A stretch of 64,000 nt of DNA from assembly GCF_030013595.1 (NCBI RefSeq), contig NZ_CP122768.1, one strand, 5' to 3'. Shown here piece by piece: positions 9,759 through 36,926 of this stretch. The notes below the pieces were generated by a model. The model was not told the DNA's origin. It ran no database searches and saw nothing but the letters and a program-made list of their open reading frames with translations. Made by a program: the position numbers and the translations under genes. How positions within the stretch are numbered: position 1 is the stretch's first letter; each line of letters starts with the position of its first letter. The DNA is from Escherichia coli (GTDB taxonomy: Bacteria; Pseudomonadota; Gammaproteobacteria; Enterobacterales; Enterobacteriaceae).

Positions 9759-9821
9759 CACAACATCAGGGCGCATCCGCCCTGATGACTTTAATCCGGG
9801 AACATAAACAAGGGGGACACA

Positions 9822-18757: not shown

Positions 18758-19211
18758 TTCCCTGCGTGAAGCCATGACCCGTTCATGCCGATGGTGTCAG
18801 GCCAACCCGGAAAAATTCACCATTTTCGTGGAGAGCGGCAACATTGAAACGACCGGAGAAACGCCCTCGTTTGTTTACCGCTATCAGATGGTGATGTTTG
18901 TCATGGATTACGCCGGGGAGCTGGACGACCTCACGCTGCCGCTGCTGGCGTGGTTATCCGAAAATCAGCCACAGTTGTTGCTCAACCCTGAGCGTAATCA
19001 GGACATCAAATTCTCCGCCGTTATCAATGACGATGACAGCGCCGATCTCCTGTTTACGCTCCCCCTGCGGGAACGCGTTCGCATCACGCGCAGCAGTCAG
19101 GGGACACCGCAGGCAGAACACCTGCCGGAGCCAAAACCCCGCCTGCCATCACCCGAAGGCGACTGGTCGCATGTATTCCAGGATGTGACGTGGGGTGAAA
19201 GCGATGGATAA
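18744..19211 (+). CDS. R: Tail completion protein (P2 gpR)
   Basis: 155 aa, same length and position as P2 R. Confidence 0.8.
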   Translation: MLKTDSLREAMTRSCRWCQANPEKFTIFVESGNIETTGETPSFVYRYQMVMFVMDYAGELDDLTLPLLAWLSENQPQLLLNPERNQDIKFSAVINDDDSADLLFTLPLRERVRITRSSQGTPQAEHLPEPKPRLPSPEGDWSHVFQDVTWGESDG

Positions 19212-19839
19212 GGCATTCACCCGCGTGGATGAAACCTTTGAGGCCATCCGCGACAGCCTGAATCAGCAGGCCATCAATAACATCGCCAGAAAGCTGGCAC
19301 AGGATTTACGCCGCGCCCAGCAGGCGCGTATCCGGTCACAGAAAGCGCCGGACGGGACCGCGTGGACACCACGCAGACGCCGCGTAACCCGGATACAGGA
19401 GCGCATTCGCTTTATCTGGAATAACGAAGCACGCACGCTGAAAAACTGGCATCACGACACGGGGAAATACGGGCGAACCATTACCGGGTGGGATGAGGAT
19501 AAAAACAATATCCGCACGTTTTACCGGGATGACATCGACCGTTTTCTGGAAATACGCACCCGGCGCATCAACCAGGACAGCACAAAGCGCGTCCCCATGT
19601 TCGTAAAACTGCGCACCGCCCGCTACCTGAAAGCCCGTGCAGATGCTTCCGGTGTGACGGTGGGTTACAGCGGCGTGGCCGCACGTATTGCCCGCGTTCA
19701 TCAGTTCGGTGAGCGCGATCAGGTTGCGCCGGGCATTTTCACCGATTACCCGGTACGTGAGCTGCTGGGTATCAGCCAGGCAGATGAGCGCCTGATTTAT
19801 AACACGGTGCTGGGCCGGATTGCGGAGGCTGTACGGTGA
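19195..19839 (+). CDS. S: Tail completion/virion morphogenesis protein (P2 gpS-like)
   Basis: Position between R and V; longer than P2 S. Confidence 0.7.
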   Translation: MKAMDKAFTRVDETFEAIRDSLNQQAINNIARKLAQDLRRAQQARIRSQKAPDGTAWTPRRRRVTRIQERIRFIWNNEARTLKNWHHDTGKYGRTITGWDEDKNNIRTFYRDDIDRFLEIRTRRINQDSTKRVPMFVKLRTARYLKARADASGVTVGYSGVAARIARVHQFGERDQVAPGIFTDYPVRELLGISQADERLIYNTVLGRIAEAVR

Positions 19840-20417
19840 GCGCAGAACTCATGCGACTGCTGAGCAATATCATCCGCACCGGGATCATCTCTGAAGTTGA
19901 TGAGAAGTCCTGGCGCGTGCGCGTTCGCAGCGGCGAACTGGAAACAGGCTGGTTGCGCTGGAACACCACGCGCGCGGGAGCCTTCAATGTATGGCTGCCG
20001 CCATCACCAGGCGAACAGGTGGTAATTGCCTGCATTGGCGGCAACCCGGAAACCGCCATGATAATTGGCAGCCTGTGGAGTGATGCCAGTCCGGCCCCCG
20101 GCAAAAGCCTGAAAGAAATCGTGGTCAGCGCGCCGGATGGCGCGGCGTTCCGCTACGACGCAGACGCTGGCGCACTGAGCGCCAGCGGCATGAAAACAGC
20201 CACCCTGCAGGCATCCGTCAGCGTGACACTGGATACGCCCGTCGTGGAATGCACAAACCTTCTGAGAACAGCGACGCTTGACGTCACAAAAGGGGGAAAG
20301 ATGAGCGGCAATATCACGCACAGCGGCGGCGATTTCACCTCAAACGGCATCACAGTGCATACGCATAAGCACGGTGGCGTTAAAGGTGGCAGCGATTCGA
20401 CAGGAGGCCCGCAGTGA
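19836..20417 (+). CDS. V: Baseplate spike/assembly protein (P2 gpV)
   Basis: 193 aa with the conserved GG/HTH..HGG C-terminus of gpV-type spikes. Confidence 0.85.
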   Translation: MSAELMRLLSNIIRTGIISEVDEKSWRVRVRSGELETGWLRWNTTRAGAFNVWLPPSPGEQVVIACIGGNPETAMIIGSLWSDASPAPGKSLKEIVVSAPDGAAFRYDADAGALSASGMKTATLQASVSVTLDTPVVECTNLLRTATLDVTKGGKMSGNITHSGGDFTSNGITVHTHKHGGVKGGSDSTGGPQ

Positions 20418-22189: not shown

Positions 22190-24781
22190 ATGAGTACCAC
22201 AACACGAAAATTTAAAACCATTATCACTGATACTGGTGCCAAAAAATTAGCTCAGGCAGCCGCGCCAGATGGTAATCCTGTCCGCCTGACTCACATGGCC
22301 GTGGGCGACGGTGGCGGCACGTTGCCCACACCAGACAGTAAGCAGACCCGTCTGGTGCATGAGGTGTGGCGACATACTGTTAATCGCGTCATCCTGGACG
22401 CAACACATCAGAACCGCATTATTGCGGAGCTGGTTATTCCTCCTGAAACGGGCGGATTCTGGATCCGGGAAATTGGTGTATTTGATGAGCACGGCGATTT
22501 GATCGCGGTGGGCAATACTGCGGAAAGTTACAAGCCAGCCGTTGCCGAAGGATCCGGACGTGTACAAACATTTCGCACCATTCTGACCGTATCCAGCACT
22601 GCCACCGTGGCGCTTACCGTGGATAACACCATGGTTATGGCCACAGTGGATTACGTGAATGACAAACTGAAAGAACATGAACAGTCACGACGTCACCCGG
22701 ACGCCTCGCTGACCGCAAAAGGCTTTGTTCAACTCAGTAGCGCCACCAACAGCACGTCTGAAACACTGGCCGCAACGCCGAAAGCGGTAAAGGCCGCGTA
22801 TGACCTTGCTAACGGGAAATATACCGCACAGGACGCCACCATAGCGCGAAAAGGCCTTGTCCAGCTCAGTAGTGCCACCAACAGCACGTCTGAAACGCTC
22901 GCCGCAACGCCGAAAGCGGTAAAGGCAGCATATGACCTTGCTAACGGGAAATACACTGCACAGGACGCCACCACAACGCGAAAAGGCCTTGTTCAGCTCA
23001 GTAGCGCCACCAACAGTGATTCTGAAACGCTTGCGGCAACGCCAAAGGCGGTAAAGGCAGCATATGACCTTGCTAACGGGAAATACACTGCACAGGACGC
23101 CACCACAGCGCGAAAAGGTCTTGTCCAGCTCAGTAGCGCCACCAACAGCACGTCTGAAGCATTGGCCGCAACACCGAAAGCGGTAAAGGCCGCGTATGAC
23201 CTTGCTAACGGGAAATACACTGCACAGGACGCCACCACAGCGCGAAAAGGTCTTGTCCAGCTCAGTAGCGTCACCAACAGCGATTCTGAAACGCTTGCGG
23301 CAACGCCAAAGGCGGTAAAGGCCGCGTATAACCTTGCTAACGGGAAATACACTGCACAGGATGCCACTACAGCGCGAAAAGGTCTTGTCCAGCTCAGTAG
23401 CGTCACCAACAGTGATTCTGAAACGCTGGCCGCAACATCAAAAGCGGTGAAGTCTGCCTATGACAATGCTGAAAAACGCCTTCAGAAAGATCAGAACGGT
23501 GCGGATATTCCGGGAAAGGATACCTTCACGAAAAATATCGGTGCCTGTCGTGCTTATAGCGGCGCTTTGAGCACTGAAGCCGGAAACTGGACAACCGCTC
23601 AGTTTATTGAATGGCTGGATTCCCGTGGTGCATTTAATCATCCGTACTGGATGTGCAAAGGCTCATGGTCATATGCAAATAACAAAATCATTACGGATAC
23701 CGGATGTGGTGATATCCACCTGGCTGGTTGTGTCGTCGAGGTCATGGGAACTAAATCTGCAATCACTATCCGAGTAACCACGCCGACAACATCAAGTGGT
23801 GGCGGTACAACCAGCGCACAATTCACTTACATTAATCATGGGGGCGGCTACTTCCCCGGCTGGCGTCGTGACTGGAATCGTCAGGGCGACTCAATGACCG
23901 GAACGATTAATCAGGATGGCGGAAGCCAGAATGCCTATATGTCTACGGCCTTATGTTCAGGCACCAGAGGCGGCAAAAAATATCTCAGAAAGTTTCGTGG
24001 TGGAGAAGGAGATACTATCTGGCATGAAACAGTACAGGGCGGGGTAATTCGCTGGGCGACAGGAAACTATGACGCTCAGGAAGAATTATCACTCAGCTCC
24101 GCTTATGGTCTCCGTTCAAGAGGTGAGATTACATCACTCAGTGCTAATGGTCTGCGCATTGCTTATGGCAATTATGGATTCTTTATCAGGAATGATGGCG
24201 GCAGCACATATTTAATGCTGACGGCCTCTGGCGATAAATTTGGGACATGGAACGGCTTAAGACCGCTGACTATCAATAACGCCAATGGCGGAGTGTCAAT
24301 GGGGCATGGCCTGAGTGTTACAGGTGATATTGTCTCAAGTACCAAAGTACGTGCCGGTAGCGGGAAAAAGTTCACGGTCAGCAGCAGCAATACATCCACG
24401 AAGGAAGCCGCATTCAATTTGTGGGGAAACGCAAGTCGTCCGGTGGTGGCTGAATTAGGTGATGATGCAGGCTGGCATTTTTACAGTCAGAGAAATACAG
24501 ATAACAGCATCACTTTTGCTGTTAACGGGCAGGTATCACCATCTAACTATGGCAACTTTGATTCACGCTATGTCCGGGATATTAGACTTGGTGGCGCGTC
24601 ATCCTATAAACCAGCAAATAACGGGACAACATGGACGCATCAGGCTCCATCTGGTTGCGCATATACCGGGATTATCGTTCAGGATACAGGCTCAAACTCT
24701 GCCGATAATATTGGTGGTGTTTATTACAGACCAATTCAAAAAAATATTAATGGTACATGGTATAACGTATCGAGTGTTTGA
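22190..24781 (+). CDS. H: Tail fiber protein (P2 gpH-like) with expanded internal repeats
   Basis: Conserved gpH N-terminus, then about 5.5 tandem 44-aa repeats and a distal receptor-binding region. Confidence 0.85.
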   Translation: MSTTTRKFKTIITDTGAKKLAQAAAPDGNPVRLTHMAVGDGGGTLPTPDSKQTRLVHEVWRHTVNRVILDATHQNRIIAELVIPPETGGFWIREIGVFDEHGDLIAVGNTAESYKPAVAEGSGRVQTFRTILTVSSTATVALTVDNTMVMATVDYVNDKLKEHEQSRRHPDASLTAKGFVQLSSATNSTSETLAATPKAVKAAYDLANGKYTAQDATIARKGLVQLSSATNSTSETLAATPKAVKAAYDLANGKYTAQDATTTRKGLVQLSSATNSDSETLAATPKAVKAAYDLANGKYTAQDATTARKGLVQLSSATNSTSEALAATPKAVKAAYDLANGKYTAQDATTARKGLVQLSSVTNSDSETLAATPKAVKAAYNLANGKYTAQDATTARKGLVQLSSVTNSDSETLAATSKAVKSAYDNAEKRLQKDQNGADIPGKDTFTKNIGACRAYSGALSTEAGNWTTAQFIEWLDSRGAFNHPYWMCKGSWSYANNKIITDTGCGDIHLAGCVVEVMGTKSAITIRVTTPTTSSGGGTTSAQFTYINHGGGYFPGWRRDWNRQGDSMTGTINQDGGSQNAYMSTALCSGTRGGKKYLRKFRGGEGDTIWHETVQGGVIRWATGNYDAQEELSLSSAYGLRSRGEITSLSANGLRIAYGNYGFFIRNDGGSTYLMLTASGDKFGTWNGLRPLTINNANGGVSMGHGLSVTGDIVSSTKVRAGSGKKFTVSSSNTSTKEAAFNLWGNASRPVVAELGDDAGWHFYSQRNTDNSITFAVNGQVSPSNYGNFDSRYVRDIRLGGASSYKPANNGTTWTHQAPSGCAYTGIIVQDTGSNSADNIGGVYYRPIQKNINGTWYNVSSV
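22715..23460 (+). repeat. Tandem in-frame 132-bp repeats (about 5.5 copies) inside the tail fiber gene
   Basis: Unit encodes RKGLVQLSSATNSxSETLAATPKAVKAAYDLANGKYTAQDATTA; copies near-identical at DNA level. Confidence 0.85.
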
Positions 24782-25317
24782 TTATGATGCATTTAAAAAA
24801 TATAAAACCGGGCAATCCAAAAACAAAAGAACAGTACCTGTTAACTAAAAACTCCGGCGTTGTCTGGTTATTCGCTGAAGATGGTAAAAACTGGTATGAG
24901 GAACAAAAGAACTTTCAGCCAGACACCATAAAGATTGCATATGATGAAAATAATGTCATATGCGACGTGCAAACGGATGTAACTGCAATTTGCCCGGAAG
25001 GAAAAAGTGTTGTCGAGTTGCCTAATATTACAGCAAACCGACGCGCTGATATTTCAGGTAACTGGATGTTTAAAGATGGCTCAGTCATTAAACGTGTGTA
25101 TACCGAAGAAGAGCAACGCTTGCAGGCTGAAAACCAGAAACAAAGGTTATTACAGCAGGCCAGAGAAAAAACGCAGTTCTGGCAGACCCAGCTTGCATTA
25201 GGGATTATCAGTGATTCAGATAAGCAACAACTGATGCGCTGGATGCGGTACGTGCAACAAGTTGAGACCACTGATACCACTGAATTACCCGTTACGTTCC
25301 CTGATCAACCAGAATAA
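24778..25317 (+). CDS. G: Tail fiber assembly chaperone (P2 gpG-like)
   Basis: Immediately downstream of H with overlap; typical tfa size. Confidence 0.8.
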   Translation: MIMMHLKNIKPGNPKTKEQYLLTKNSGVVWLFAEDGKNWYEEQKNFQPDTIKIAYDENNVICDVQTDVTAICPEGKSVVELPNITANRRADISGNWMFKDGSVIKRVYTEEEQRLQAENQKQRLLQQAREKTQFWQTQLALGIISDSDKQQLMRWMRYVQQVETTDTTELPVTFPDQPE

Positions 25318-25350
25318 ACGAAAGGCCCGAATATCGGGCCTTATCGTTAT
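25318..25350. terminator. Bidirectional rho-independent terminator between convergent G and U
   Basis: Hairpin AAAGGCCCGA-tat-CGGGCCTT flanked by T/A runs. Confidence 0.6.
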
Positions 25351-25385
25351 TTCTGTTTATCTAACTATTTGTGATTTGCGTTAAA

Positions 25386-25880
25386 TCAGAACAGTCCCTT
25401 AACAGAACTGACCGCACTGTTAAGGGATGACGCCACCTTATCTTTGAAGCCGGACAGCATATCGCTGAACGATGAGGATTGCAGGCGCTCCCGCAAATCC
25501 TCATCACAGCGTTCAAGGGTCAGTGAAAATTCTATCTTTTTCGCCTTACCGTAGCGATCAAACTCGGAACGGGTCGTATTCGTTTCAGTCAGCACATACA
25601 TGCCGTAAATCTGCCCGACACCATCAATCAGAGGCCAGGGGCGTCCTGTATATGCCTGCGTGGTCAGCAACGAAAGCGACACTTCGCCACCTGTAATTTC
25701 AGGATAAAGCACGCCGGAAAGCACAATGCGATCATCACCTGCACCTATATACTGCCAGCTTGCTGAACGGTTAACGCGTTCATTTTTTACATGCCGCCAG
25801 CTTTTGTTTTGCTGTAACTGCTGATGCGGCAGTGTGCGCAGCTCAAAAACAAACATGCCGTAGATCATCATCATGGCCAT
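25386..25880 (-). CDS. U: Tail protein U (P2 gpU)
   Basis: MMIYGMFVF...QQLQ...SW N-terminus resembles P2 U. Confidence 0.85.
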   Translation of the reverse strand: MAMMMIYGMFVFELRTLPHQQLQQNKSWRHVKNERVNRSASWQYIGAGDDRIVLSGVLYPEITGGEVSLSLLTTQAYTGRPWPLIDGVGQIYGMYVLTETNTTRSEFDRYGKAKKIEFSLTLERCDEDLRERLQSSSFSDMLSGFKDKVASSLNSAVSSVKGLF

Positions 25881-25886
25881 GACTCC

Positions 25887-28703
25887 TCAATCTTTATCGT
25901 AAAAACTGCCACGTCCGGCACGGGCGCGCCGTTCCATCTCTGCCCTGACCATTTCACCGACCAGTTTCGCCAGTTCGCGGGGATTCTGCGTAACAACGTT
26001 ATGCAGATGAACATGAATTTCACCGCCAAACCCGGAGGCAACAGGCTCCCGGTTACGGAAAGTTGCAGGAACTGATGCCACTGGAGAGCGTATGGCCTCC
26101 GCCACCGGGCGGGAGCTGGCCGCAACAACAGGGACCAGCGCCGGAGGCAGCGGAGCCGGGACCACGGGTGTGATATTAATTGCGGGGGCAGGCTTACTGA
26201 CCTGCGCAATCTTCCGCTCCTGCCACTCCCCACGAACAGCAAGTGCGCGGGGCAGGTTCTTAAAGACAATATCGCCGGGGCCAATGCGTTTTTTCGTCTC
26301 ATCAACCAGCTTACCTGTGTTATCAGCAATTTTGCTGAGTCTGCGTAGCGTACCGGTATTGCTGTCTGTGAGCGGTTTGTTGTCTTTGGGCTTATCACCT
26401 CCGGTGCCATTGCCATTTTCCACAGGCTTCGGCGGATTGATTTTCGCCAGGTCCCCCTGAAGCAAGGCAACCTTGTCCTGAAGAATGGCCGCACGCTGTG
26501 CGTCTTCGATTTTCTTGCGCGCCCTTTCCGCTTCATCCGGAAGCACACCGAGCTTTTCAAGTATCCACGCCAGCGTATCCAGCAACATTTTTGCAGGTGT
26601 CAGAACAAGTTGTAACGCACCGCCAAGAACGTTACCGAATATCTCGCCAGCACTGGTACATTTATCCAGCGTTTCCTTGCTGGACTCCATCGGTGACAGC
26701 AGCGATTTAAACCAGTTAAACACCTGGCTGATCCCGCTTCCGATTGCGTCAAAAACAGGACCAAACCGTTCAAAGGTTTCGCGCAACGGGGTCAGCCTTT
26801 CCATAATCCCGCTGAACACTCCGGCAAAAAATGCCCTGATGGGATCCCAGTATTTCCAGATAAGAACGGCAGCTCCGGCAAGCGCAGCCACAATAAGACC
26901 AACCGGACTGAACAACGCCCCGATAGCGCCTCCCAGTAAAGAAACAGAACCCGTCACCATTCCCCACAGCGCAGGCAACACCCTGACGACATTCATTGAC
27001 CGGGTCAGGATGTCAAAACCAAGACGCAGGGTGGCCAGCTTCCCGTAAAGCACCCCAATAACCAGCGACAACGAGCCAATCGTTGCAGTCATTGCCAGCA
27101 ACGCACCGCCTGCTATCAGTAGCTGGCGCGTCAGTACCGGATGGGCCTGCGCCAGCGAGGTGATTTTTTCAAGCACCCGCGTGAACCACTGCGTGACAAA
27201 ACGCAGCGGACCGTCAACCAGATCACTGATGCGAATACGAAGACCTTCCCATGCGCTGTCGAGATTTTTCAGGTCCCCATCAAGATTATCGGCCATTACT
27301 TTTGCAACGCGATCGGCCTCTCCCCTTGCCCCCTGCAATTCTCTGGTCAGTTTTTGCAGCTCTCCTGAACCAGCCGCCGCAACAAGCGTCTGCAAACCAA
27401 CGAACGCCTCTTCTCCGGCGATGTCCTTGAAGAAGGAGACCTGGTCCACCTGTCCGTATTTTTGTGTCGCCTTATAGAGATCAAGCAGCACATCCTCCAT
27501 CGGGCGCATTTTGCCTCTGGCGTCAGCAACTGACACCCCAAGCTCTTTCAGCGCATCAGCCGCAGCTTTTGGCGGTGATGCAAGGCGGGACAGACTTGCG
27601 CGCATGGCCGTACCAGCATCGCTTCCACGAAGACCATTATTGGCAAGCATCCCGGCCATGGCTGCCGCTTCTTCAAGACTGATACCAAGTTTTGCGGCAA
27701 CCGGACCGGTATACTTCATGGTTTCGCCCAGCGCGCGTAAATCAGTATTGGTCCGGGTGAATGCCGCTGTCAGCGTATCGCCAACCCGGTCCATTTGATC
27801 GGCTGTCAGGTTGAACTGTGTGAGGATATTGGAGCCTATATCAGCCGTCTCGCCGAGTTCGACGCCACCTGCCAGCGCCATATTAAGAACACCGGGCAAT
27901 GCGGCCTGAATGGCCTGCGGAGTAAAACCAGCCATTGCCAGAAAGCTCTGCCCACTGGCGGCATCACTCGCAGTAAACTGTGTTTCAGAGCCAAGTTTTA
28001 ACGCCTGCTCACGCAGCGCCTTAAACTGCGGGCTGTTTTTGTCGATTCGCGTCAGTGCCTGAACGCGGGACATCTCTTTGCCGAACCCGATCGCAGGCTG
28101 CAAAAAACGCCCGGCAGCATAGCCGCCCGCCGCTGCCGCACCAATTGCCAGCGCACCACCTGTTTTCAGTTTTCCCGCTGTTTCCTGCGCGCGCGAATAC
28201 CGCTCACGCGCCCGCGTTACACGCGCAAGCGCCTGCCGTTCGCGTTCAAGCTGGTTGTTGTACTGTTCGGTGCGTCTGATGGCCTGCTGGATGGTGTTAT
28301 CGCTGCCTGTCAGGGAAATGCCGTGGCGTTTCAGCTCTCCGCCAAGCTCCCGCATTTTCTGAATTTCCCGTGTGCGCGATTCATTCAGGCGTTCAAGCCG
28401 GGTGCTTAACTGCTGCATCAGCTTTTGTTGTTTTTCGCTGAGCACTGTACCCGTGCGTTGTAACTGATTAAGGGCGTTAAGCTGGCGTCGTGCTTTCAAT
28501 ATGCCAGCATCCGCTTTACTGACAGCGTCACGGGCGCGCTCAAATGAACGCGCCTGACGCTCGAGATTTTTGATCGCCCCCTGCGTTCGCTGGATGGAGT
28601 CACCAAGCTGCCCCATCAGGCGGCGGGCGTTTTCGGCAGGCCGGGTCAACCTGTCAACGGCGCTGAAAGCGACCCGGATATCAAGAGTCTTCATTATCTG
28701 CAT
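25887..28703 (-). CDS. T: Tail tape measure protein (P2 gpT)
   Basis: 938-aa protein, helical with a central hydrophobic glycine-rich segment; between E and U. Confidence 0.85.
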   Translation of the reverse strand: MQIMKTLDIRVAFSAVDRLTRPAENARRLMGQLGDSIQRTQGAIKNLERQARSFERARDAVSKADAGILKARRQLNALNQLQRTGTVLSEKQQKLMQQLSTRLERLNESRTREIQKMRELGGELKRHGISLTGSDNTIQQAIRRTEQYNNQLERERQALARVTRARERYSRAQETAGKLKTGGALAIGAAAAGGYAAGRFLQPAIGFGKEMSRVQALTRIDKNSPQFKALREQALKLGSETQFTASDAASGQSFLAMAGFTPQAIQAALPGVLNMALAGGVELGETADIGSNILTQFNLTADQMDRVGDTLTAAFTRTNTDLRALGETMKYTGPVAAKLGISLEEAAAMAGMLANNGLRGSDAGTAMRASLSRLASPPKAAADALKELGVSVADARGKMRPMEDVLLDLYKATQKYGQVDQVSFFKDIAGEEAFVGLQTLVAAAGSGELQKLTRELQGARGEADRVAKVMADNLDGDLKNLDSAWEGLRIRISDLVDGPLRFVTQWFTRVLEKITSLAQAHPVLTRQLLIAGGALLAMTATIGSLSLVIGVLYGKLATLRLGFDILTRSMNVVRVLPALWGMVTGSVSLLGGAIGALFSPVGLIVAALAGAAVLIWKYWDPIRAFFAGVFSGIMERLTPLRETFERFGPVFDAIGSGISQVFNWFKSLLSPMESSKETLDKCTSAGEIFGNVLGGALQLVLTPAKMLLDTLAWILEKLGVLPDEAERARKKIEDAQRAAILQDKVALLQGDLAKINPPKPVENGNGTGGDKPKDNKPLTDSNTGTLRRLSKIADNTGKLVDETKKRIGPGDIVFKNLPRALAVRGEWQERKIAQVSKPAPAINITPVVPAPLPPALVPVVAASSRPVAEAIRSPVASVPATFRNREPVASGFGGEIHVHLHNVVTQNPRELAKLVGEMVRAEMERRARAGRGSFYDKD

Positions 28704-29219
28704 TCCCGCTGCGAAGTGCCGCCCGCTCGCGCCAGCTAACCACTTCGCCGGGCGTCATCATGAAGATTTCGGCGGGCGACCAGTTAAAAATGGCGGCAAT
28801 ATCCGCCACCAGATCTTCGATGTGCTCAAAGCACACCAGGGTGATTACGCTGCCGTCTCCTGCACGCTCTTCGCGCCAGAGTCTGGCTCGCTCATAAAAT
28901 TTACAGCCACAGCGCACAACTGAATAAAATCGCGTGACGACATTTTTTTAATCATCACTTCATCCAGTCGTGGCGAGGTCACGCGAGGCAACAGCGTGAA
29001 CATGGTATCCGCTTTCAGATTCAGCACATCAGACAGCGACAGACCACGCAGGGATCCAGCCTGCTCAATAGCCCCGGTGATCTCCACATACGTGATTTTT
29101 TCGCCACCACGCTCAATTGGTCGGGTCAGTTTTACGCCACGTTCGACAGCCATATCCTCACCTGCCGTCACATCATCCGCCACGGTGTTATTCCGGGTTT
29201 CAGTATCGATGTCTTTCAT
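28681..29219 (-). CDS. E+E': E+E' fusion produced by programmed -1 frameshift
   Basis: A7 tract (plus-strand T7 at about 28943-28949); the -1 frame continues into the 28681-28917 ORF, as in P2 E/E' and lambda G/GT. Confidence 0.65.
28845..29219 (-). CDS. E: Tail assembly chaperone E (zero-frame product)
   Basis: ORF upstream of T containing an A7 slippery run; exact start uncertain. Confidence 0.7.
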   Translation of the reverse strand: MKDIDTETRNNTVADDVTAGEDMAVERGVKLTRPIERGGEKITYVEITGAIEQAGSLRGLSLSDVLNLKADTMFTLLPRVTSPRLDEVMIKKMSSRDFIQLCAVAVNFMSEPDSGAKSVQETAA

Positions 29220-29274
29220 CAGTTGTCTCCTTTTCAGTCAGAGGCGACGCACTGCGCCGCCTGCATATTATTTA

Positions 29275-29787
29275 TCAGCCAAGCCCAAGCGCGGAACGGA
29301 TACGGTCAGGCACAATGTCCTTGCCGTCCTTCCGGTAGATGTGGTTCAACAGGTCGATTTCCCACAGCGGGCGATCGTTAACGCTCAGCTTGTAGTAGGT
29401 GTTTTTGACAGCGTAAGTGTGTGATGTGGCTTCGCCCTGTTTGGCTTCCCCCATATCAATTTCCGTCACACGCCCGCGCATCTCGATTTCATACAGATCA
29501 CTTTCTGCATCGGTGTAGTATTCACCCGCAAAACGCAGCAGCGTGCCGTCAATCGTGCCGCCATATTTAAGGAACAGCGCACGAACAGCTCCCCCCATAA
29601 CAAAACTCGCATCAAGCGCGGAGTCGTCCAGACCGAGATCAATACTTACCGCCCCCATCATGCCACCACCACGATAGCTGTCGGTTTTGCGCGTCAGTTT
29701 GGGCGGCGTGACGGATGTCACTTTACCCACTTCGTTTTCACCATCCACAAACAACGTAAAAAAGCGAAGATGTTTTGGTACAGCCAT
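29275..29787 (-). CDS. FII: Tail tube protein (P2 gpFII)
   Basis: 170 aa, directly downstream of the sheath gene. Confidence 0.85.
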   Translation of the reverse strand: MAVPKHLRFFTLFVDGENEVGKVTSVTPPKLTRKTDSYRGGGMMGAVSIDLGLDDSALDASFVMGGAVRALFLKYGGTIDGTLLRFAGEYYTDAESDLYEIEMRGRVTEIDMGEAKQGEATSHTYAVKNTYYKLSVNDRPLWEIDLLNHIYRKDGKDIVPDRIRSALGLG

Positions 29788-30971
29788 CAGACACCTCCCA
29801 GCACCGCAAATGCGGGACCAAAGAATTCATCAGTAAACGTCTGGTAAAGCTCCATGTCTTCCAGTGGCGGAACGGGCGTATATTTGTAGCGAATACGCAC
29901 ACGTCCCTGACGTAAATCCGTGGTGCCGTTATCCACCACGTCATACCAGCACTCCGCACCAATCAGTTTCCCGGCAGTAACCAGCGAATCCAGTTTTGCT
30001 CTGATGGCACTGATAACATCCTTCACGTTCGCAGGCGTCAGTGGACTGTCGATGGTTTCAAACTGCGCTTCCGCAATTGAATCAGCCAGCACCTGTGCGG
30101 TTCGGGTATACACCTCAAAGATGTAGGCGTTCGTTTCCGGTGTGCGGTTGCCCCAGAAGCGGAACCCGTTGCGACGAATAATGGTCGTGATTTCTTTGTT
30201 GTTGAGGCTGTTGGCATCACTGTCTTCAGCCTGCAACGACCAGAACACATGCCTCGACATCCCCAGCACATTTTTAACCGGAACGTTGGACAGCGATTTG
30301 TGCCAGCCCTGCTCATGGTCAATGTACGCACGAAGGCCGCACGCATAGGCAGGCGCGGGGAACGTTTCGTTTTCGCCACTTTTCGGGTTGTAGGCGATGA
30401 AGTCCGGCCACAAGAGCATCACCTCACGTTCGTTGAATTTCTGGCGGTAGGTAATCGCTTCAGCCATCGTGTTACAGCCGTGACATGCGGCATACACAAA
30501 CGCGCGCAGTTTACCCGCAATCACGCACAGGGATTTTGTCACCGCCTCCGTGTCCAGCTCCGGCGCGGCCAGAATACGCGGACGGTATCCGATGCTTTCA
30601 TCCTGCTCTGCAACAAGCAGCGCATACATCCCCGTATAGCTGCCGTCATCCTCAGAACCACCGATAACCAGTTGATCCTGCGTCTTACCGTCTTCTTCTT
30701 TGTGTTCAGCCACGCGAACGACGATCACCTTTGTGCTCACCTGGTCTGCGATGGCCTTAAGCGCACGATAAAGCGTCCCCGTTGTTCCGCATTTTCCCAG
30801 CACGTCATTGACGCGGGTCAGCAGTGTGGGCTTGTTCAGCGGGAACAGCTTCGCGTCCGCATCATCCGCCGTTGCCACGATACCGATAACGCTGGAATCA
30901 ACATCGTTAATCGCTGTTACCAGGTCGGTATTTTCCGTAACACGGGCACCATGAAAACGAGTTTCACTCAT
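29787..30971 (-). CDS. FI: Tail sheath protein (P2 gpFI)
   Basis: 394 aa with conserved sheath blocks (GFRFWGNRT, YTRTAQV, YKYTPVPPLE). Confidence 0.9.
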   Translation of the reverse strand: MSETRFHGARVTENTDLVTAINDVDSSVIGIVATADDADAKLFPLNKPTLLTRVNDVLGKCGTTGTLYRALKAIADQVSTKVIVVRVAEHKEEDGKTQDQLVIGGSEDDGSYTGMYALLVAEQDESIGYRPRILAAPELDTEAVTKSLCVIAGKLRAFVYAACHGCNTMAEAITYRQKFNEREVMLLWPDFIAYNPKSGENETFPAPAYACGLRAYIDHEQGWHKSLSNVPVKNVLGMSRHVFWSLQAEDSDANSLNNKEITTIIRRNGFRFWGNRTPETNAYIFEVYTRTAQVLADSIAEAQFETIDSPLTPANVKDVISAIRAKLDSLVTAGKLIGAECWYDVVDNGTTDLRQGRVRIRYKYTPVPPLEDMELYQTFTDEFFGPAFAVLGGV

Positions 30972-31128
30972 AGCTTCAGCCCCTTGTATCCGTTAAATGA
31001 TTCGGCAACAATCATCACCCACCACGCGCGTAATCTCACCCCTGCGCCGTTCTCCCGACCCAGCGACAACAAAAAGCAGTAACCCCCTCCGCACGCACAT
31101 GCGACCATGCCGCACAGGGAGGGAACAG

Positions 31129-32232
31129 ATGACCGACACCACCATGCAATTGCTCAGTCAGGGCACAGACCCCGTGAAAATGCCGGATTTTGATATTCTT
31201 GCGGAGGGTAAAACGCTGTCAGGCGTGGCAGAGCGCCTGATGAGCCTGTCACTGACCGACAACCGGGGATTTGAGGCGGACCAGCTCACCATCACGCTGG
31301 ATGATGCGGATGGTCAGTTGCAGCTACCGCCACGGGGCGCGCGCCTGACGGTTCTCATTGGCTGGAAAGGAGAACCGCTGACAGAAAAAGGCACTTACAT
31401 TGTTGATGAAATCGCTCACGAAGGACCGCCGGACAGGCTGACAGTTTCAGCCAGAAGCGCAGATTTTCGGGATGAATTTAACGTTAAACGTGAGGTGTCC
31501 TGGCATGATGTGACCGTTGAGCGTGTGGTATCCGCCATCGCTCATCGGTATGGTCTGAAATCGCAAATCAGCGAAATGCTGATGGATATTGAAATCGACC
31601 ACGCCGACCAGACCGAAGAAAGCGACATGTCCTTCCTTACGCGCATGGCGGAAATGCTGGGCGCAATCACTACGGTAAAAAGCGGTAATCTGTTATTCAT
31701 TATGCCAGGCGGTGGCGTGAACGCGCAGGGCCAGCCGTTGCCCTCGTTCGCCATCACACGCAGCAGCGGCGATCGCCATCAGTTCCGCATTGCTGACCGA
31801 GAGGCGTATACGGGGGTACGCGCTTACTGGCTTGATCTTAATTACGGGAAAAAGAAAAAAGTCAGCGTGAAACGCCGTAAACCGCCAAAACCCAAAAAGG
31901 AGAAAAGCAGCAGCCGTGAAGGTGATTATATGGAAGGCGCGGAAGGCAATGTGTTTGTGTTACGCAAGACTTATCAGAACGAGCAGGCAGCAAGACGCGC
32001 AGCGGCGGCAAAGTGGCAGCAGCTACAACGCGGAGCCGCAGCGTTCTCCATCACATTGGCACGTGGACGCGCAGAACTCTACCCCGAAATGCATGGCACG
32101 GTAACAGGCTTTAAAAGCGAGATTGATAATCAGGACTGGATTATTGCGAAAGCCGAGCACACCATTGATAACAGCGGCTTTACCACGCAGCTTGAGCTTG
32201 AGGCAAAAATCCCGGAATGGATAGCAGAATGA
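31129..32232 (+). CDS. D: Tail protein D (P2 gpD, late control gene D family)
   Basis: Start at MTDTTMQLL with AGGGAGGG ribosome-binding site; size and position as P2 D. Confidence 0.8.
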   Translation: MTDTTMQLLSQGTDPVKMPDFDILAEGKTLSGVAERLMSLSLTDNRGFEADQLTITLDDADGQLQLPPRGARLTVLIGWKGEPLTEKGTYIVDEIAHEGPPDRLTVSARSADFRDEFNVKREVSWHDVTVERVVSAIAHRYGLKSQISEMLMDIEIDHADQTEESDMSFLTRMAEMLGAITTVKSGNLLFIMPGGGVNAQGQPLPSFAITRSSGDRHQFRIADREAYTGVRAYWLDLNYGKKKKVSVKRRKPPKPKKEKSSSREGDYMEGAEGNVFVLRKTYQNEQAARRAAAAKWQQLQRGAAAFSITLARGRAELYPEMHGTVTGFKSEIDNQDWIIAKAEHTIDNSGFTTQLELEAKIPEWIAE

Positions 32233-32396
32233 GACTCTTAAATGTATTAGTCCAGACACGTACTAGCGGGCTAAACGGCACAGTCTTATCTGACCATCTG
32301 CCCCTGACACAGAGCAGACGGTCCTTGATCTTACCCACTAATAATGGACGCGCGACTAATATAATTTATTGCTTTTTATTTATACCTCACTGAGAT

Positions 32397-33032
32397 TTAG
32401 CGAGCTAATATATTCAAAGAATTTAACAATTGAGTGTCGAGTGTTTCAGTTGCAGGAATCGGTAATCCATTCGCAATGCGGTAATTTTTCACAGACAGCC
32501 TTGTGGATGGCCCCATTATGCCGTCAATATTTCCGTTATAAAATCCCCTGTCCAGCAATGCGAACTGAACTCGCATAATCAATCGCTTACGTTTCTCTGC
32601 ATCAGAAGCAAGCCCATTACTCGTACGGTTAACCTCTGAAGTTCCAACAGAACTCGTGTTAGTGGTTCTATTATTATCGTTAGAACGAAGTGCACGCACC
32701 GAGGAAGAGGACGATGAGGAACTTGCACCTGAACTTGAAGAACCAGATGAACTTGGTGAGCTGTATGTTTTTGGATAATAGGGGGTACTTCCACCATAGT
32801 ATCCACCACCTGATGAGGATCTATGAGAGCTATGGCTCCTATGAGAACTATGGCTTCGATGCCCTGCGATATAAAATGGGACTTCCGTGTTAAGTGGAGC
32901 TATCACTAAATCATGCTCATTAAGAGTCATACCAGGTAAATCACTCGCTCCTGTAGATGAATCGCTTGCCCATACAGAATTGTTGAGAGCCAAAAATCCC
33001 GGAAGTAGAGCAGCAAAATTAAACTTTTTCAT
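32397..33032 (-). CDS. hxsA: His-Xaa-Ser repeat protein HxsA: secreted precursor with Gly/Ser/Tyr-rich linker and C-terminal peptidoglycan-binding domain
   Basis: Signal peptide MKKFNFAALLPGFLALNNSVWA; HRSHSSHRSHSSHRS repeats; C-terminus LLDRGFYNGNIDGIMGPSTRLSVKNYRIANGLP resembles PG_binding_1; ATGA overlap with hxsC. Confidence 0.8.
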   Translation of the reverse strand: MKKFNFAALLPGFLALNNSVWASDSSTGASDLPGMTLNEHDLVIAPLNTEVPFYIAGHRSHSSHRSHSSHRSSSGGGYYGGSTPYYPKTYSSPSSSGSSSSGASSSSSSSSVRALRSNDNNRTTNTSSVGTSEVNRTSNGLASDAEKRKRLIMRVQFALLDRGFYNGNIDGIMGPSTRLSVKNYRIANGLPIPATETLDTQLLNSLNILAR

Positions 33033-34141
33033 AAAATTGGTCTCGGTGATTGATGAAAACGGCCTTTTGAGGAACTGAAATAGCCAGCACAGGAAGGCTT
33101 CTGAGTACATTCATCACATTCTTTTGGATAGTAATTTTTCCAATCAGAGATCGACTGAACAGCAAGCTCCCTAGCCCTTTCAGGAAGATAACACAAAGGA
33201 TAATTAAAAATTGTCAGAGGTATGCCTGACCTGTATGCAGCGTCTATGGCAGAGATTATTTTCTCACTATAACTACTGTGATCAATGAAGATGGTGGACC
33301 AGTTTTTTCGTGCCCAACCGATAGGCTCCAACCCCATAAGGGAAATCTGATTGATGTTGGAGAACACACGGCCAGCGAATTCTACGATATCATCCAATTC
33401 GGTATAGTTAGCCAGTGTAGGAATAACTCTAAGTTCGATATTAATCCCCAAGTTTCCTGCATTGATTAACCCTTTAACCGTTTCATTAAATGCGCCATCA
33501 CTCCCTACCAGATGATCATGCACAAGTGGTCTTGATGAGTAGAGCGGGATACCAAAGGTGATTTTGATCTTTTTGCTTCGCTTTGCCATTTCCTGTGTAA
33601 AGTTGGTATCAGCAAATTTGCGTCCGTTTGTTAAAACATGTAAAGCAGTATCTGGTGAATTCTCGATGATAAAATCAATGAAGTGAAGGAAGTCATCCCC
33701 ATATAGCAAAGGTTCACCACCGCTGACCCCAACAACTCCGTTCAAGCCAAATGAAGCTATAGCAAGAGCTGATTGGGTAAGTAGCCAGTCATCATTTATT
33801 TTCTTTGGTGGCTGCGAACAAAACAGACACAAGTTATTGCAGCGTTCCGTAACTAAGACAGTATTATGATTGGCTTTGCGTGACAGAATAACGCGTATCA
33901 TATTGCCATTGTTGATTATCCCAATATCTCCATCTTCAATTGACTCAAATAATTCAGTGCTAATAACAGAGAAATCAAAGCATGGTGGAATGGCATCATT
34001 ATTGCCTTCAGCAACTACTAGCAAATTGGGCAAAAAGAATAAAGGGTTCACTGGTTTTTGTTTGCATAACCGATAGAACCCCGTGGGCACGTTCTCTGTA
34101 GAAGCAAAATGAAAGATATCGTTCCTGATAACCTCAGACAT
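33029..34141 (-). CDS. hxsC: Radical SAM maturase (HxsC-type assignment; B/C assignment tentative)
   Basis: CNNLCLFC (Cx3Cx2C) radical-SAM cluster motif; C-terminal CDEC...C cluster; overlaps both neighbours. Confidence 0.8.
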   Translation of the reverse strand: MSEVIRNDIFHFASTENVPTGFYRLCKQKPVNPLFFLPNLLVVAEGNNDAIPPCFDFSVISTELFESIEDGDIGIINNGNMIRVILSRKANHNTVLVTERCNNLCLFCSQPPKKINDDWLLTQSALAIASFGLNGVVGVSGGEPLLYGDDFLHFIDFIIENSPDTALHVLTNGRKFADTNFTQEMAKRSKKIKITFGIPLYSSRPLVHDHLVGSDGAFNETVKGLINAGNLGINIELRVIPTLANYTELDDIVEFAGRVFSNINQISLMGLEPIGWARKNWSTIFIDHSSYSEKIISAIDAAYRSGIPLTIFNYPLCYLPERARELAVQSISDWKNYYPKECDECTQKPSCAGYFSSSKGRFHQSPRPIL

Positions 34142-35522
34142 ATGCCCATCCTTTTAGCATCTCAGCCTTCGAACCACCCTCTGAGATGCAGTTCATCAGA
34201 TACCTGAACATCCCCTTGTGATATTGACAAAACGTTGAACGACTCCTATCACCGACAGGCTCACCCTGTACACTTATGTTCTGGCATGGATCTGAACCAC
34301 AAAATGGTTGATATGCACATGTATCACAACCTGGCAGAGCAAAATTGAACGATGAACTCAATACTGCGTTATAGTAAGGACTATCAGAAAATGATAGCGT
34401 CTTAACTTCACCCGCACTGAACTCCGTTTCAGGATTCACCTTCTGCAACATACGGCTCTCATCGCTACCATATACTCGACCGTCATAATTGAAAAGAATA
34501 CTGTTAAGCACGACTCCACTTGGAGACTTTAAATCCGCATAACCACTAAAACCGGGATTGAAGATCCTTTTCAGATGAATGGAGGCCGAATGTTCCACAA
34601 CCCTTATCCCTTCATTATTAATCTTAAGGATTTCATCTATCAACGAGGCATAGAAGCTGAAGTATTCGTCCATAGAAAAGGTGAAAGAAGCTTTTTGTGC
34701 AAACCCATAGGGACTAACAGGTCGGATAAACATGTCCTTGAGACCAAGAGACAAGTGAGCCTGAACAATCGATTCAGGACGTCTGATAAGCTCTTTAGTA
34801 ACTGTAGTAACCGTTGCAACGCGGCCAGCACCTAAAGAGTGTTTGATAGCCTCTACCCCTGACACTGTTCTACTGTACGCAAGCCCACGACCAAGAATTC
34901 GATTACTGTTGTGAACAACTTCCTCACCATCAAGCGACACAGAGAACGTTATGTTCCGGTCTCTCGACCATTCAATCATATCCTCATTCAAGACAGACAG
35001 ACTTGATGCCACCACCATCTCAAAATTGGTTCTTCCCAGCGTTTCAGCACATTGATCATAGATGCTCTGAATTAAATCAAACCGCAAGAGAGGCTCCCCA
35101 CCCTGTATCTCTATTTTGTAAGGTGGCGTTGATAGTTTTTTAATAGCCGAAATAATATCGGGGATGAGCTCAGGATTTAGGTCGTAACCTGAGGCATTAA
35201 CAGAAGCTCTACTAACCTGGCAATACTTGCATGTATGGTCACAACGTAATGTGGGTACAATCATGAAAATTGGCCTGACAGCCAGTTCATTCATCAATCG
35301 TTTTGCAAAAGCAGAACTTAAAGCATAGGGAGTTATAGCAGATGAGCTTTCACTGGTTATGAAAAGCTTACTTTCTAGCACGTTTGATTGCTCCGAACTA
35401 ATTCGCTCATCAGAAAGATCAATAAGGTCTTGCTCACCAATGAAATGATGAAAACCTGCAAGGTTGCTTATAAACACCTGTCCATTAGGCAATCTGTCAA
35501 AATTAAATGGCATCAATTCCAT
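34134..35522 (-). CDS. hxsB: Radical SAM/SPASM maturase (HxsB-type assignment; B/C assignment tentative)
   Basis: CDHTCKYC (Cx3Cx2C) motif plus C-terminal Cys-rich SPASM-like region (CDTCAYQPFCGSDPC...C). Confidence 0.8.
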   Translation of the reverse strand: MELMPFNFDRLPNGQVFISNLAGFHHFIGEQDLIDLSDERISSEQSNVLESKLFITSESSSAITPYALSSAFAKRLMNELAVRPIFMIVPTLRCDHTCKYCQVSRASVNASGYDLNPELIPDIISAIKKLSTPPYKIEIQGGEPLLRFDLIQSIYDQCAETLGRTNFEMVVASSLSVLNEDMIEWSRDRNITFSVSLDGEEVVHNSNRILGRGLAYSRTVSGVEAIKHSLGAGRVATVTTVTKELIRRPESIVQAHLSLGLKDMFIRPVSPYGFAQKASFTFSMDEYFSFYASLIDEILKINNEGIRVVEHSASIHLKRIFNPGFSGYADLKSPSGVVLNSILFNYDGRVYGSDESRMLQKVNPETEFSAGEVKTLSFSDSPYYNAVLSSSFNFALPGCDTCAYQPFCGSDPCQNISVQGEPVGDRSRSTFCQYHKGMFRYLMNCISEGGSKAEMLKGWAYV

Positions 35523-35836
35523 TATGAAAGCCTCTCATCAACACTGCGAAGCACTTTATGGACAATAGAGTCTCTCAACGCCCCTGTTTTATGCTGTAGC
35601 TTTTCTCGCAAAGAGTAATCATTAAGCAGCCTATCGAATTCATAAAGGAATTTGGGATTATCGTTTTCAAAAGAGATTATCCAGTGGGAAACGTCTTCAT
35701 GGAGTTTCCATCGAGTAAGCGGAGTCATCCAATATAGACTATTGCGTATAACCCATTCAGAATATAGTTCTTTCTCAAACACTCTTTCGCTCATTGCAAT
35801 TATCTTCCAATACAAATATTCATGATCAGCAACCAC
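35522..35836 (-). CDS. hxsD: HxsD, small LLNDYxLRE-motif protein of the His-Xaa-Ser system
   Basis: Contains FDRLLNDYSLREKL; GTG start at 35836 (alternative ATG at 35794); stop overlaps hxsB start by 1 nt. Confidence 0.7.
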   Translation of the reverse strand: MVADHEYLYWKIIAMSERVFEKELYSEWVIRNSLYWMTPLTRWKLHEDVSHWIISFENDNPKFLYEFDRLLNDYSLREKLQHKTGALRDSIVHKVLRSVDERLS

Positions 35837-36046: not shown

Positions 36047-36307
36047 ATGTTCCGTTGTCCGCTTTGTGGCGCATCCGCCCGAATCCGCACCAGTCGTCCG
36101 GAAAATGATTCAAACACCGTGCGGCAAAAGTATTACCAATGTAACAACCTAGAATGCGGCGTATGCTTCTCAACACTGGAAGCTTTCCATAAATTCACAT
36201 CAAAACACGCCTCCGGCGCTCACTCTTCAGAAGGTATCCCGTGGCATGAACTGCCAGCTTCACACAAAGGAAACAATCAGATGAGTTTGCCCTTACCTCA
36301 AAATTAA
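36047..36307 (+). CDS. ogr: Late transcription activator Ogr (C4 zinc finger)
   Basis: MFRCPLCGASARIRTSR...YYQCNNLEC parallels P2 Ogr (MFHCPLCQHAAHARTSR...YHQCQNVNC). Confidence 0.9.
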   Translation: MFRCPLCGASARIRTSRPENDSNTVRQKYYQCNNLECGVCFSTLEAFHKFTSKHASGAHSSEGIPWHELPASHKGNNQMSLPLPQN

Positions 36308-36367: not shown

Positions 36368-36631
36368 ATGGTCGGAGGGAATACCCGAAGGCCAGATGTG
36401 GAAAGGCCCCGGAAAACATTTCTGTTTAACCGAGGCCCTAACCGCATTACCTTGACAAGTGAAAGGTTAGCGCCTCTCCGGAAAAGGAGCAAGTGCTATG
36501 TCGCAAAAATCGCTTACGGCCATCATGTTCTGCGTGACGGCAATCCTCATCATCTGGATGTTGCACGGTTCGCTGTGCGAAATACGGATGAGATTCTGGG
36601 GAGCGGAGTTTGCGGCGTTCTTACAGTGTAA
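36368..36631 (+). CDS. Mok-like overlapping reading frame (translation-coupling ORF for the hok-like toxin)
   Basis: 87-aa ORF in another frame spanning the hok-like gene, as in hok/mok loci; may not yield a stable protein. Confidence 0.35.
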   Translation: MVGGNTRRPDVERPRKTFLFNRGPNRITLTSERLAPLRKRSKCYVAKIAYGHHVLRDGNPHHLDVARFAVRNTDEILGSGVCGVLTV

Positions 36632-36638
36632 GCAGTAA
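36498..36638 (+). CDS. hok: Hok/Gef-family type I toxin (46 aa)
   Basis: AAAAGGAG ribosome-binding site; MSQKSLTAIMFCVTAILIIWMLHGSLCEIRMRFWGAEFAAFLQCKQ has the Hok pattern (TM helix then SLCEIR...AAF). Confidence 0.7.
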   Translation: MSQKSLTAIMFCVTAILIIWMLHGSLCEIRMRFWGAEFAAFLQCKQ

Positions 36639-36906: not shown

Positions 36907-36926
36907 AAAAAGGCCGCAGAGCGGCC
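36907..36926. repeat. attR core of the P2-like prophage (direct repeat copy 2); also the terminator hairpin of the downstream lambdoid gene
   Basis: Exact 20-bp match to 864-883; on the minus strand it forms hairpin plus T-run just after the stop of ORF 36949-37164. Confidence 0.6.

Follow-up and report, generated by a model that had tools for sequence, protein, structure and literature searches.

Tail gene organization in a P88-like prophage of Escherichia coli: the FI to U segment inverted relative to phage P2 and a divergent FI/D control region

Gene content of the tail region

The window (the whole stretch of DNA analyzed, 64,000 nucleotides of Escherichia coli contig NZ_CP122768.1, assembly GCF_030013595.1) was investigated by ORF scanning, PHROG matches and BLASTP comparison to phage P2. 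The following genes were identified at 25386-30971 and on either side:

22190-24781, plus strand: H, tail fibre (ORF scan; PHROG tail fibre match)
24778-25317, plus strand: G, fibre assembly (ORF scan; PHROG fibre assembly match)
25386-25880, minus strand: U, gpU homolog, tail protein (phrog_76, E = 2.6e-74; 46% identity to P2 U)
25887-28703, minus strand: T, gpT homolog, tape measure protein (phrog_28, E = 9.5e-219; 33% identity to P2 T)
28681-28917, minus strand: E' frame, gpE' extension, tail assembly chaperone (phrog_1756)
28845-29219, minus strand: E, gpE, tail assembly chaperone (phrog_103; 35% identity to P2 E)
29275-29787, minus strand: FII, gpFII homolog, tail tube (phrog_55, E = 1.1e-58; 42% identity to P2 FII)
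29787-30971, minus strand: FI, gpFI homolog, tail sheath (phrog_23, E = 2.8e-124; 45% identity to P2 FI)
31129-32232, plus strand: D, gpD homolog, tail/baseplate hub, "late control D" (phrog_52, E = 8e-165; 49% identity to P2 D)
36047-36307, plus strand: ogr/Delta-type zinc-finger late activator gene of the prophage (ORF and translation)

The Peduoviridae contractile-tail set (FI, FII, E/E', T, U and D) is present in full and intact. Its PHROG matches ranged from E = 1e-36 to 1e-219, and by BLASTP the proteins were 33-49% identical to those of P2 over nearly their full length; H and G showed 59-81% identity to their P2 counterparts. The PHROG family matched by FII carries the wrong label "head closure", and the RefSeq name for the equivalent gene is "phage major tail tube protein". 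For D, the ORF scan also gave a longer mechanical frame beginning at 30997, but the phrog_52 match begins only at residue 43 of its product, and the N-terminus MTDTTMQ is common to the window and P88. The product of 36047-36307 matched PRK09678 (NCBIfam) weakly, under the curated cut-off, while the equivalent gene of STEC384 is annotated as "ogr/Delta-like zinc finger family protein". The cargo genes hxsABCD are located between D and ogr. A search of the whole 64-kb window against Rfam at gathering thresholds gave no match.

Based upon ORF scan, PHROG and BLASTP, U, T, E/E', FII and FI lie on the minus strand and H, G and D on the plus strand, as the first-pass annotation of this DNA had described. 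H and G are the final genes of a long plus-strand late operon beginning at O, FI is the leading gene of a minus-strand operon, and D forms a plus-strand unit of its own. The P2 gene order cited for comparison proved correct as well: in the P2 RefSeq record G, fun(Z), FI, FII, E, E', T, U, D and ogr are on one strand. The F operon of P2 (FI FII E E' T U D) consists of seven genes read in the plus direction from pF, with U and D abutting, and is co-oriented with V-W-J-I-H-G. The window has the homologous tail gene set, overlapping E' frame included, but with FI-FII-E/E'-T-U inverted exactly between G and D, so that FI to D do not share one strand. The window also lacks orf30 and the separate pV promoter, which P2 has between S and V, as well as fun(Z), which in P2 separates G from FI.

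The P2 and PSP3 records annotate an E+E' product made by -1 frameshift. In the window the heptamer A_AAT_TTT is found in the E frame at 28902-28896 (minus strand), and the -1 frame past AAATTTT runs on into gpE'-family sequence. On this reading of the sequence, the heptamer is a candidate slippery site for the E+E' product.

Predicted transcriptional signals at the two junctions

The following signals were identified, the first four at the FI/D junction:

30972-31128: FI/D divergent control region, 157 bp, with a single Ogr-type dyad and candidate -10 elements on either side
31048-31071: Ogr-type dyad, CGTTCT-N12-ACAACA (TGTTGT-N12-ACAACA-like)
31100-31101 (TG) and 31103-31108 (-10, GACCAT), plus strand: predicted D promoter, with a probable start near 31115
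31015-31010 (-10, GATGAT), minus strand: predicted FI promoter, with a probable start near 31004
13840-13863: Ogr-type dyad, TGTTCT-N12-ACAACA, from the region of this prophage's divergent P/O late promoters, used as internal reference for the FI/D site
25322-25342, both strands: predicted bidirectional intrinsic terminator, with a 9-bp stem, 6 GC pairs and T-rich tails on both strands

A convergent terminator had been proposed at 25318-25350, and a real hairpin with a 9-bp stem is indeed located there (25322-25342). Its folding energies were -20.7 and -20.2 kcal/mol (z = -5.9 and -4.7), and no shuffled sequence folded as well. It lies in the G-U spacer, which in the window is 69 bp long and contains no invertase. 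Rightward late transcription from O to G would end at this hairpin, and the operon from FI to U, read leftward from a late promoter just to the right of FI, would end at its opposite side. No terminator was predicted 3' of D.

The search for late-promoter elements between FI and D, which the first-pass annotation had proposed, yielded a single Ogr-type dyad with -10-like hexamers on both sides. The dyad at 13840-13863 is placed like the annotated pP/pO activator site of P2, and GTTCT-N12-ACAACAAAA has only two perfect occurrences in the 64 kb, one between P and O and one between FI and D. A strict TGT-N12-ACA pattern gave 15 matches against 15.8 expected, with none in the FI/D region; it was dropped as too narrow, the P2 sites themselves being TGT-N12-CCA, and was replaced by a degenerate pattern and by TGTTGT-N12-ACAACA. 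The degenerate pattern, T[GC]T-N12-[AC]CA, found exactly one site in each P/O and each FI/D region of every clade member tested (four lineages), and also recovered the annotated pO/pP and pF activator sites of P2. Against the ideal TGTTGT-N12-ACAACA, 9-11 of the 12 positions of the FI/D dyad were matched. The same two regions had served, post hoc, to define the motif; its support consists of positional conservation across genera and the analogy to P2.

Spacing is conserved throughout the six genera described below. The D ATG is 68.5-76.5 nt away from the dyad, and the FI ATG about 81-89 nt away. Toward D, a TG at +29/30 from the dyad (+28/29 in SEN4) is followed by a -10-like hexamer at +32-37; toward FI, a GATGAT-like hexamer is found at about +33-39. 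The remainder of the spacer, outside the dyad and the -10-like elements, has diverged among genera. A scan of the FI/D spacer for sigma-70 consensus promoters found none, which is expected for activator-dependent late promoters. The features of an Ogr/Delta-type late promoter are found together here: a dyad about 55 bp upstream of the predicted start, no good -35 element, and an ogr-type gene in the prophage.

Based on these signals, D would be read rightward from a late promoter of its own, rather than as the last gene of an F operon as in P2. Both promoters would flank one dyad-symmetric Ogr/Delta-type site (31048-31071), about 55 bp from each predicted start. This would repeat the design of the P/O divergent late promoter in the same prophage and of the mapped pP/pO of P2, where a single annotated activator site is placed about 55 bp away from either mapped start, a geometry that the FI/D region copies. 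P2 shares with the window the ogr-type activator gene and TGT-N12-ACA-type dyads.

Distribution of the layout among related phages

The closest known systems are P88 (Xuanwuvirus), 500465-2 (Gemsvirus) and Citrobacter phage PhiSM. P88 and PhiSM are temperate and form plaques (PMC5285337, PMC6456863). Window positions 25376-32230 matched these three, P884B11 and PhiR44_2 in one piece at 93-96% nucleotide identity, and the annotated maps of P88, 500465-2 and PhiSM agree with the window in the genes, order and strands from U to D. In the same three phages the 157-bp FI/D region differs from that of the window at only 3-7 positions, and the late genes are laid out in the same manner, with S and V contiguous. 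They differ from the window in having an invertible alternative fibre segment and an invertase between G and U, where the window has the 69-bp spacer with its terminator. Unlike them, the window has hxsABCD between D and ogr and a different H/G fibre tip.

The divergent FI/D junction was also found in phages of other genera, namely phiT5282H (Novemvirus), SEN4 (Senquatrovirus), Klebsiella phage 3LV2017 (Reginaelenavirus) and ST16-OXA48phi5.4 (Reipivirus). In these four the block is antiparallel and D diverges from FI, the spacing of the dyad and -10 elements is kept, and they fall in the same clade as the window. Their proteins are more distant (48-78% identity to the window for most of those compared, 28-58% for T), and they have other hosts and other cargo at the G/U and D/ogr junctions. 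The inverted layout is common to phages of Enterobacter, Klebsiella and Salmonella as well, in six ICTV genera. The window has the layout of this P88-like clade: a block antiparallel to O...G and a D gene divergent from FI across about 150 bp. The G/U and D/ogr junctions are spots for cargo, including an invertase with alternative fibre genes, DUF262 genes and hxsABCD.

Among 5426 complete E. coli genomes, 1101 (about a fifth) carry the layout in one piece, counted as at least 80% of window positions 24500-32400 in one place. The opposite orientation was sought with a chimeric colinear U-D query in the 1414 E. coli genomes which have a P88-type U or D; none gave a joined match with these genes juxtaposed as in P2.

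Comparison with related P2-like genomes had been suggested as a check. The P88-type relatives keep the layout of the window, whereas P2, PSP3, Fels-2 and phiCTX are colinear. Fels-2, considered as a possible inverted case, proved to be colinear. In Burkholderia phages KS5, KS14 and KL3 the genes D, U and T are listed on one strand (PMC3091744). The layout is already present in public annotated genomes, while the inversion itself is unremarked in searchable papers; no explicit description of a tail-block inversion was found in the literature searched (papers on P88, SEN4, PhiSM and the evolution of P2-like phages).

Phylogeny and origin of the inversion

Simple neighbor-joining trees of 12 genomes were constructed, with phiCTX (colinear) as outgroup and assumed root; HP1 was left out as outgroup, its tail region being organized differently. 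All seven inverted genomes formed one clade, with bootstrap values of 100 for the block genes and 77, a moderate support, for the non-block genes. The window grouped with P88 and 500465-2 at 100, and the colinear P2, PSP3, ST147phi7.1 and Fels-2 fell outside the inverted clade. Because the layout is shared across six genera which form one clade, and P2, PSP3, Fels-2 and phiCTX are colinear, a single old and fixed inversion is indicated. The window very probably carries a P88-like (Peduoviridae) prophage whose FI-U tail segment became inverted a single time, in a common ancestor, and has been fixed since. The late promoter probably moved along with the FI-FII-E/E'-T-U segment. The first-pass annotation had proposed an in-place inversion of the block; as an event in this genome, it does not agree with a layout ancestral to at least six Peduoviridae genera. 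Of the "new" divergent promoter region between FI and D, the divergent control region exists, but it is old and conserved across the clade.

That the assembler had placed a 5.6-kb block in the wrong orientation was raised earlier only on account of the difference from P2, and nothing specific speaks for it. The chance of such an artefact is negligible: cultured phages sequenced independently (P88, PhiSM, 500465-2) and the 1101 complete E. coli genomes show the same junctions within one colinear piece, these junctions recur in distant genera, both bear conserved, functional-looking signals, and the block has no flanking repeats which could mislead an assembler. The block might instead have flipped recently in this genome, or be switchable, for example through a site-specific DNA invertase acting as in the fibre shufflon of relatives. 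There is a precedent in P88, 500465-2 and PhiSM, whose stretch between G and the U end contains an invertible fibre segment along with the gene for a serine DNA invertase, and in Fels-2, where an invertase adjoins FI. Such an inversion is nevertheless extremely unlikely here. The marks of an invertible segment (flanking crossover repeats, an adjacent serine invertase and both orientations among genomes) were not seen in the window, which has no invertase ORF in the 69 bp between G and U; a search of 24700-31400 found no inverted repeats around the block except the terminator hairpin and none linking about 25.3 kb to about 31.0 kb. The opposite orientation was found in 0 of the 1414 E. coli genomes with these genes, and orientation is constant over the six genera.

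Two further explanations concern the ancestor. Phage genomes are mosaic, and the G/U junction is variable in relatives (invertase, extra fibre genes or DUF262 cargo), as would suit the gain of a foreign FI-U cassette in the opposite orientation. Such a module replacement is improbable, however, as block and non-block genes gave the same clade with similar branching, the block genes are about as similar to P2 (33-46% identity) as the flanking late genes N, J, D, V and W (41-54%), and within the block the genes and their order, E/E' included, are exactly those of P2. The polarity could also be reversed, with the divergent layout ancestral for Peduoviridae and the colinear order of P2 the product of an inversion; the trees include only 12 genomes with an assumed root, and HP1 shows yet another order. 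This is quite unlikely, given that the inverted layout is limited to one clade, while sister enterobacterial lineages (P2, PSP3, Fels-2, ST147phi7.1) as well as the distant Pseudomonas phage phiCTX and the Burkholderia phages KS5, KS14 and KL3 are colinear.

For the control region, with slightly better than even confidence, we favour the reading that the ancestral inversion brought the pF activator site beside D, so that one Ogr site may drive both the FI operon and D throughout the clade, as a second unit of the pP/pO type. The layout suggests that D could keep its late expression after the inversion because the Ogr binding site is symmetric.

Implications for P2-like phages

The present result is above all corrective: P2 cannot serve as the template for annotating every P2-like prophage. 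When a genome of E. coli, Klebsiella, Enterobacter or Salmonella shows FI-U inverted and D divergent, this is no reason to flag a misassembly or a rearrangement. The layout is a marker of a clade of at least six genera and splits the classical F operon in two units. If the proposed origin and control are true, the FI/D junction would be a clean synapomorphy, unmentioned in the searchable literature, of a supra-genus group in Peduoviridae, and would document how a symmetric activator site made an inversion viable that splits an operon.

Tail gene block

By ORF scan, the interval 25386-30971 was found to be exactly filled by five contiguous minus-strand genes; together with PHROG profiles, this confirmed the first-pass annotation in placing the FI-U block between plus-strand H, G and D. 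Identity to the translated P2 genes was 33-49% over near full length (BLASTP). The genes assigned by ORF scan and PHROG profile were:

22190-24781, plus: H, 863-aa fibre gene left of the block
24778-25317, plus: G, left of the block
25386-25880, minus: U
25887-28703, minus: T
28845-29219, minus: E, with an overlapping E' frame down to 28681
29275-29787, minus: FII
29787-30971, minus: FI
Start 31129 (longest ORF 30997), plus: D, right of the block

The longest ORF for D begins at 30997, yet its first 42 residues fall outside the profile match, which opens at residue 43, and P88 D shares the N-terminus MTDTTMQ encoded from 31129; the FI/D spacer was therefore taken as 30972-31128. Start codons in this spacer are annotated inconsistently in public records (window 30997-31128). 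The 500465-2 record (L002, 17613) uses the long ORF for D, while in phiT5282H (L005, 6623) and ST16-OXA48phi5.4 (L009, 20786) FI is over-extended, the promoter region being swallowed in each case. A candidate slippery heptamer, A_AAT_TTT, was located at 28902-28896 in the E frame, and the -1 frame runs on into gpE'-family sequence, resembling the -1 frameshift annotated for E+E' in P2 and PSP3. The block itself looks intact.

The 3' part of H (window 24000-24592) shared ~96% identity with the tail-fibre genes of P2-like phages from Yersinia pestis, e.g. P37 and vB_YpM_46, and the remainder of the prophage matched E. coli P88-like phages; distal H reflects mosaic exchange of the receptor-binding tip. 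Within region 19195-20417, S (end 19839) overlaps V (start 19836), so that neither a separate pV promoter nor an orf30-like gene, both present in P2, would fit between them. O through G are probably one late operon of ~11.4 kb. ARAGORN reported a 90-nt tRNA-Leu(CAG) at 20123-20212 (minus), antisense within gene V, but the call is probably spurious; Rfam at the gathering threshold identified no tRNA anywhere in the window.

Distribution and origin of the inversion

The P2 order given in the first-pass annotation was borne out by the P2 RefSeq record, in which G, fun(Z), FI, FII, E, E', T, U, D and ogr are co-oriented. The window's element belongs to the P88-like Peduoviridae and has the gene content which defines the P2 tail module but not its operon order. 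Of the earlier interpretation, an inversion relative to P2, a divergent promoter and a convergent terminator stood, while an assembly artefact and an inversion in this genome did not.

An artefact is contradicted by the identical layout occurring in one piece elsewhere. Based on megablast of 24000-33000 against phage records, window 25376-32230 was matched in a single piece, with 93-96% identity, in Escherichia phages P88, 500465-2, 520873, P884B11 and PhiR44_2 and Citrobacter phage PhiSM, and at least 80% of window 24500-32400 was found in one place in 1101 of 5426 complete E. coli genomes. Comparison with related P2-like genomes showed that the arrangement is not unique, the annotated maps of P88 and 500465-2 having the same strand pattern. 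Because the temperate phages P88 and PhiSM can be induced and form plaques (PMC5285337; PMC6456863), the inverted layout is fully functional. It is plainly recorded in public annotated genomes; the inversion is not remarked on in searchable papers on P88, PhiSM, SEN4 and P2-like evolution. As a control, a chimeric query fused the 3' 500 nt of U (sense) to the 5' 500 nt of D, as in the P2-style junction; 1414 E. coli genomes contain these sequences, and the two are juxtaposed in none. Neither inverted repeats connecting both block borders nor an invertase gene at the window's block junction were found, and the block lacked every feature tested of an invertase-driven invertible segment. Its orientation is fixed, not switchable.

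An event in this genome is likewise refuted by the same layout in phages of much more distant genera. Using blastn with the FI/D junction, the divergent arrangement was identified in Enterobacter phiT5282H (Novemvirus), Salmonella SEN4 (Senquatrovirus), Klebsiella 3LV2017 (Reginaelenavirus) and Klebsiella ST16-OXA48phi5.4 (Reipivirus). When window proteins were compared by BLASTP with all six-frame ORFs of 12 genomes, the block was inverted in seven (the window, P88, 500465-2 and these four) and colinear in five (P2, PSP3, Fels-2, Klebsiella ST147-VIM1phi7.1 and Pseudomonas phiCTX). D, U and T are also listed on one strand in Burkholderia phages KS5, KS14 and KL3 (PMC3091744). The seven inverted genomes formed one clade in bootstrapped NJ trees, both for in-block genes FI+FII+U (bootstrap 100) and for out-of-block genes N+J+D (bootstrap 77). 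Acquisition of a foreign cassette in place of the block is argued against by the congruence of these trees, and by a divergence from P2 which is similar inside and outside the block. The most parsimonious explanation is a single inversion in the clade ancestor, from a P2-like colinear order.

G/U junction

G stops at 25317 and U at 25386, leaving a 69-bp spacer (25318-25385). A hairpin at 25322-25342, with a GC-rich 9-bp stem and T-rich tails on both strands, folds at ~-20 kcal/mol on both strands, a value that lies far below those of shuffled sequences; it is predicted to act in both directions as the intrinsic terminator at which two late operons converge. At this junction P88 (L001, 9828-11976) and 500465-2 (L002, 10520-11976) have a DNA invertase together with an invertible segment of alternative tail-fibre sequence, whereas STEC384, like the window, has the 69-bp terminator-bearing spacer alone; fibre switching was therefore either lost from this lineage or never acquired. 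With DUF262 cargo at the same place in ST16-OXA48phi5.4, the G/U junction thus behaves as a hotspot for cargo, comparable to the site of fun(Z) in P2.

Prophage boundaries and cargo

The P88-like prophage (~864-36926) is bounded by the 20-bp direct repeat AAAAAGGCCGCAGAGCGGCC at 864-883 and 36907-36926, and lies within a lambdoid prophage, whose DNA-packaging genes flank it on one side and whose lysis/Q region flanks it on the other. The unoccupied site was found in E. coli ETEC1706, where window 1-883 is contiguous with 36907 onward. Between D and ogr, the prophage carries as cargo a complete His-Xaa-Ser radical-SAM cassette (hxsA, hxsC, hxsB, hxsD; 32397-35836, minus), all four genes scoring above NCBIfam cut-offs; the cassette is present in E. 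coli STEC384 but absent from P88 and 500465-2. A small ORF at 36498-36638 (MSQKSLTAIMFCVTAILIIWMLHGSLCEIRMRF...) resembles Hok/Gef-family toxins and occupies the position of the hok/gef or MokW-like gene annotated in P88, 500465-2 and STEC384; Sok or hok RNA gave no Rfam match.

FI/D junction and predicted late promoters

In the suggested search of 30972-31128 for late-promoter elements, a dyad and -10-like hexamers on both sides were identified; no sigma-70 consensus promoter was found in this 157-bp spacer. The dyad, CGTTCT-N12-ACAACA, lies at 31048-31071. In its extended form (GTTCT-N12-ACAACAAAA) it has only two perfect copies in the 64-kb window, the second being at 13841-13866 in the P/O divergent late-promoter region. 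In the four clade lineages tested for it, every FI/D and P/O spacer contains a single match to the degenerate pattern T[GC]T-N12-[AC]CA, which also recovers the annotated activator-binding sites of P2 for pO/pP and pF. The P2 promoters pP and pO, with mapped starts at 3016 and 3127, are each ~55 bp away from one and the same activator site.

Over six genera the spacer has otherwise diverged, with three islands kept: the dyad, with 68.5-76.5 nt between its centre and the ATG of D and ~81-89 nt between its centre and the ATG of FI; towards D, TG at +29/30 from the dyad (SEN4 +28/29) followed by a -10-like hexamer at +32-37; and towards FI, a hexamer at ~+33-39 that reads GATGAT, GATTAT or GAATAT. 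In the window these elements are:

31100-31101 (TG) and 31103-31108 (GACCAT), plus: predicted promoter of D
31015-31010, minus: FI-side hexamer

A TGn-CATCAT arrangement is present at equal distance in the prophage's own O promoter, and at the sequence level the FI/D control region conforms to Ogr-dependent late promoters. A TGTTGT-N12-ACAACA-like dyad (10/12 match) was also observed at 9742-9765, 68.5 nt upstream of ORF 9822-10154, a spacing nearly equal to that between dyad and D (69.5 nt). Over residues 60-106 the product of this ORF is similar to the N-terminal zinc-ribbon domain of ClpX; late promoters may control cargo in the A-to-Q gap.

Only the comparative evidence is mildly new, both for a putative second bidirectional Ogr-type late promoter and for the FI/D junction as a clade marker. 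The prophage's Ogr-type activator (gene 36047-36307) would bind the single symmetric FI/D site and switch on two divergent late promoters, the leftward one reading FI-FII-E/E'-T-U from a predicted start near 31004 and the rightward one reading D from a predicted start near 31115. An inversion which carried pF along with FI-U would place beside D an activator site that is usable because it is a dyad. D, deprived of its upstream operon, would so have gained an activator site, which would explain the viability of the rearrangement.
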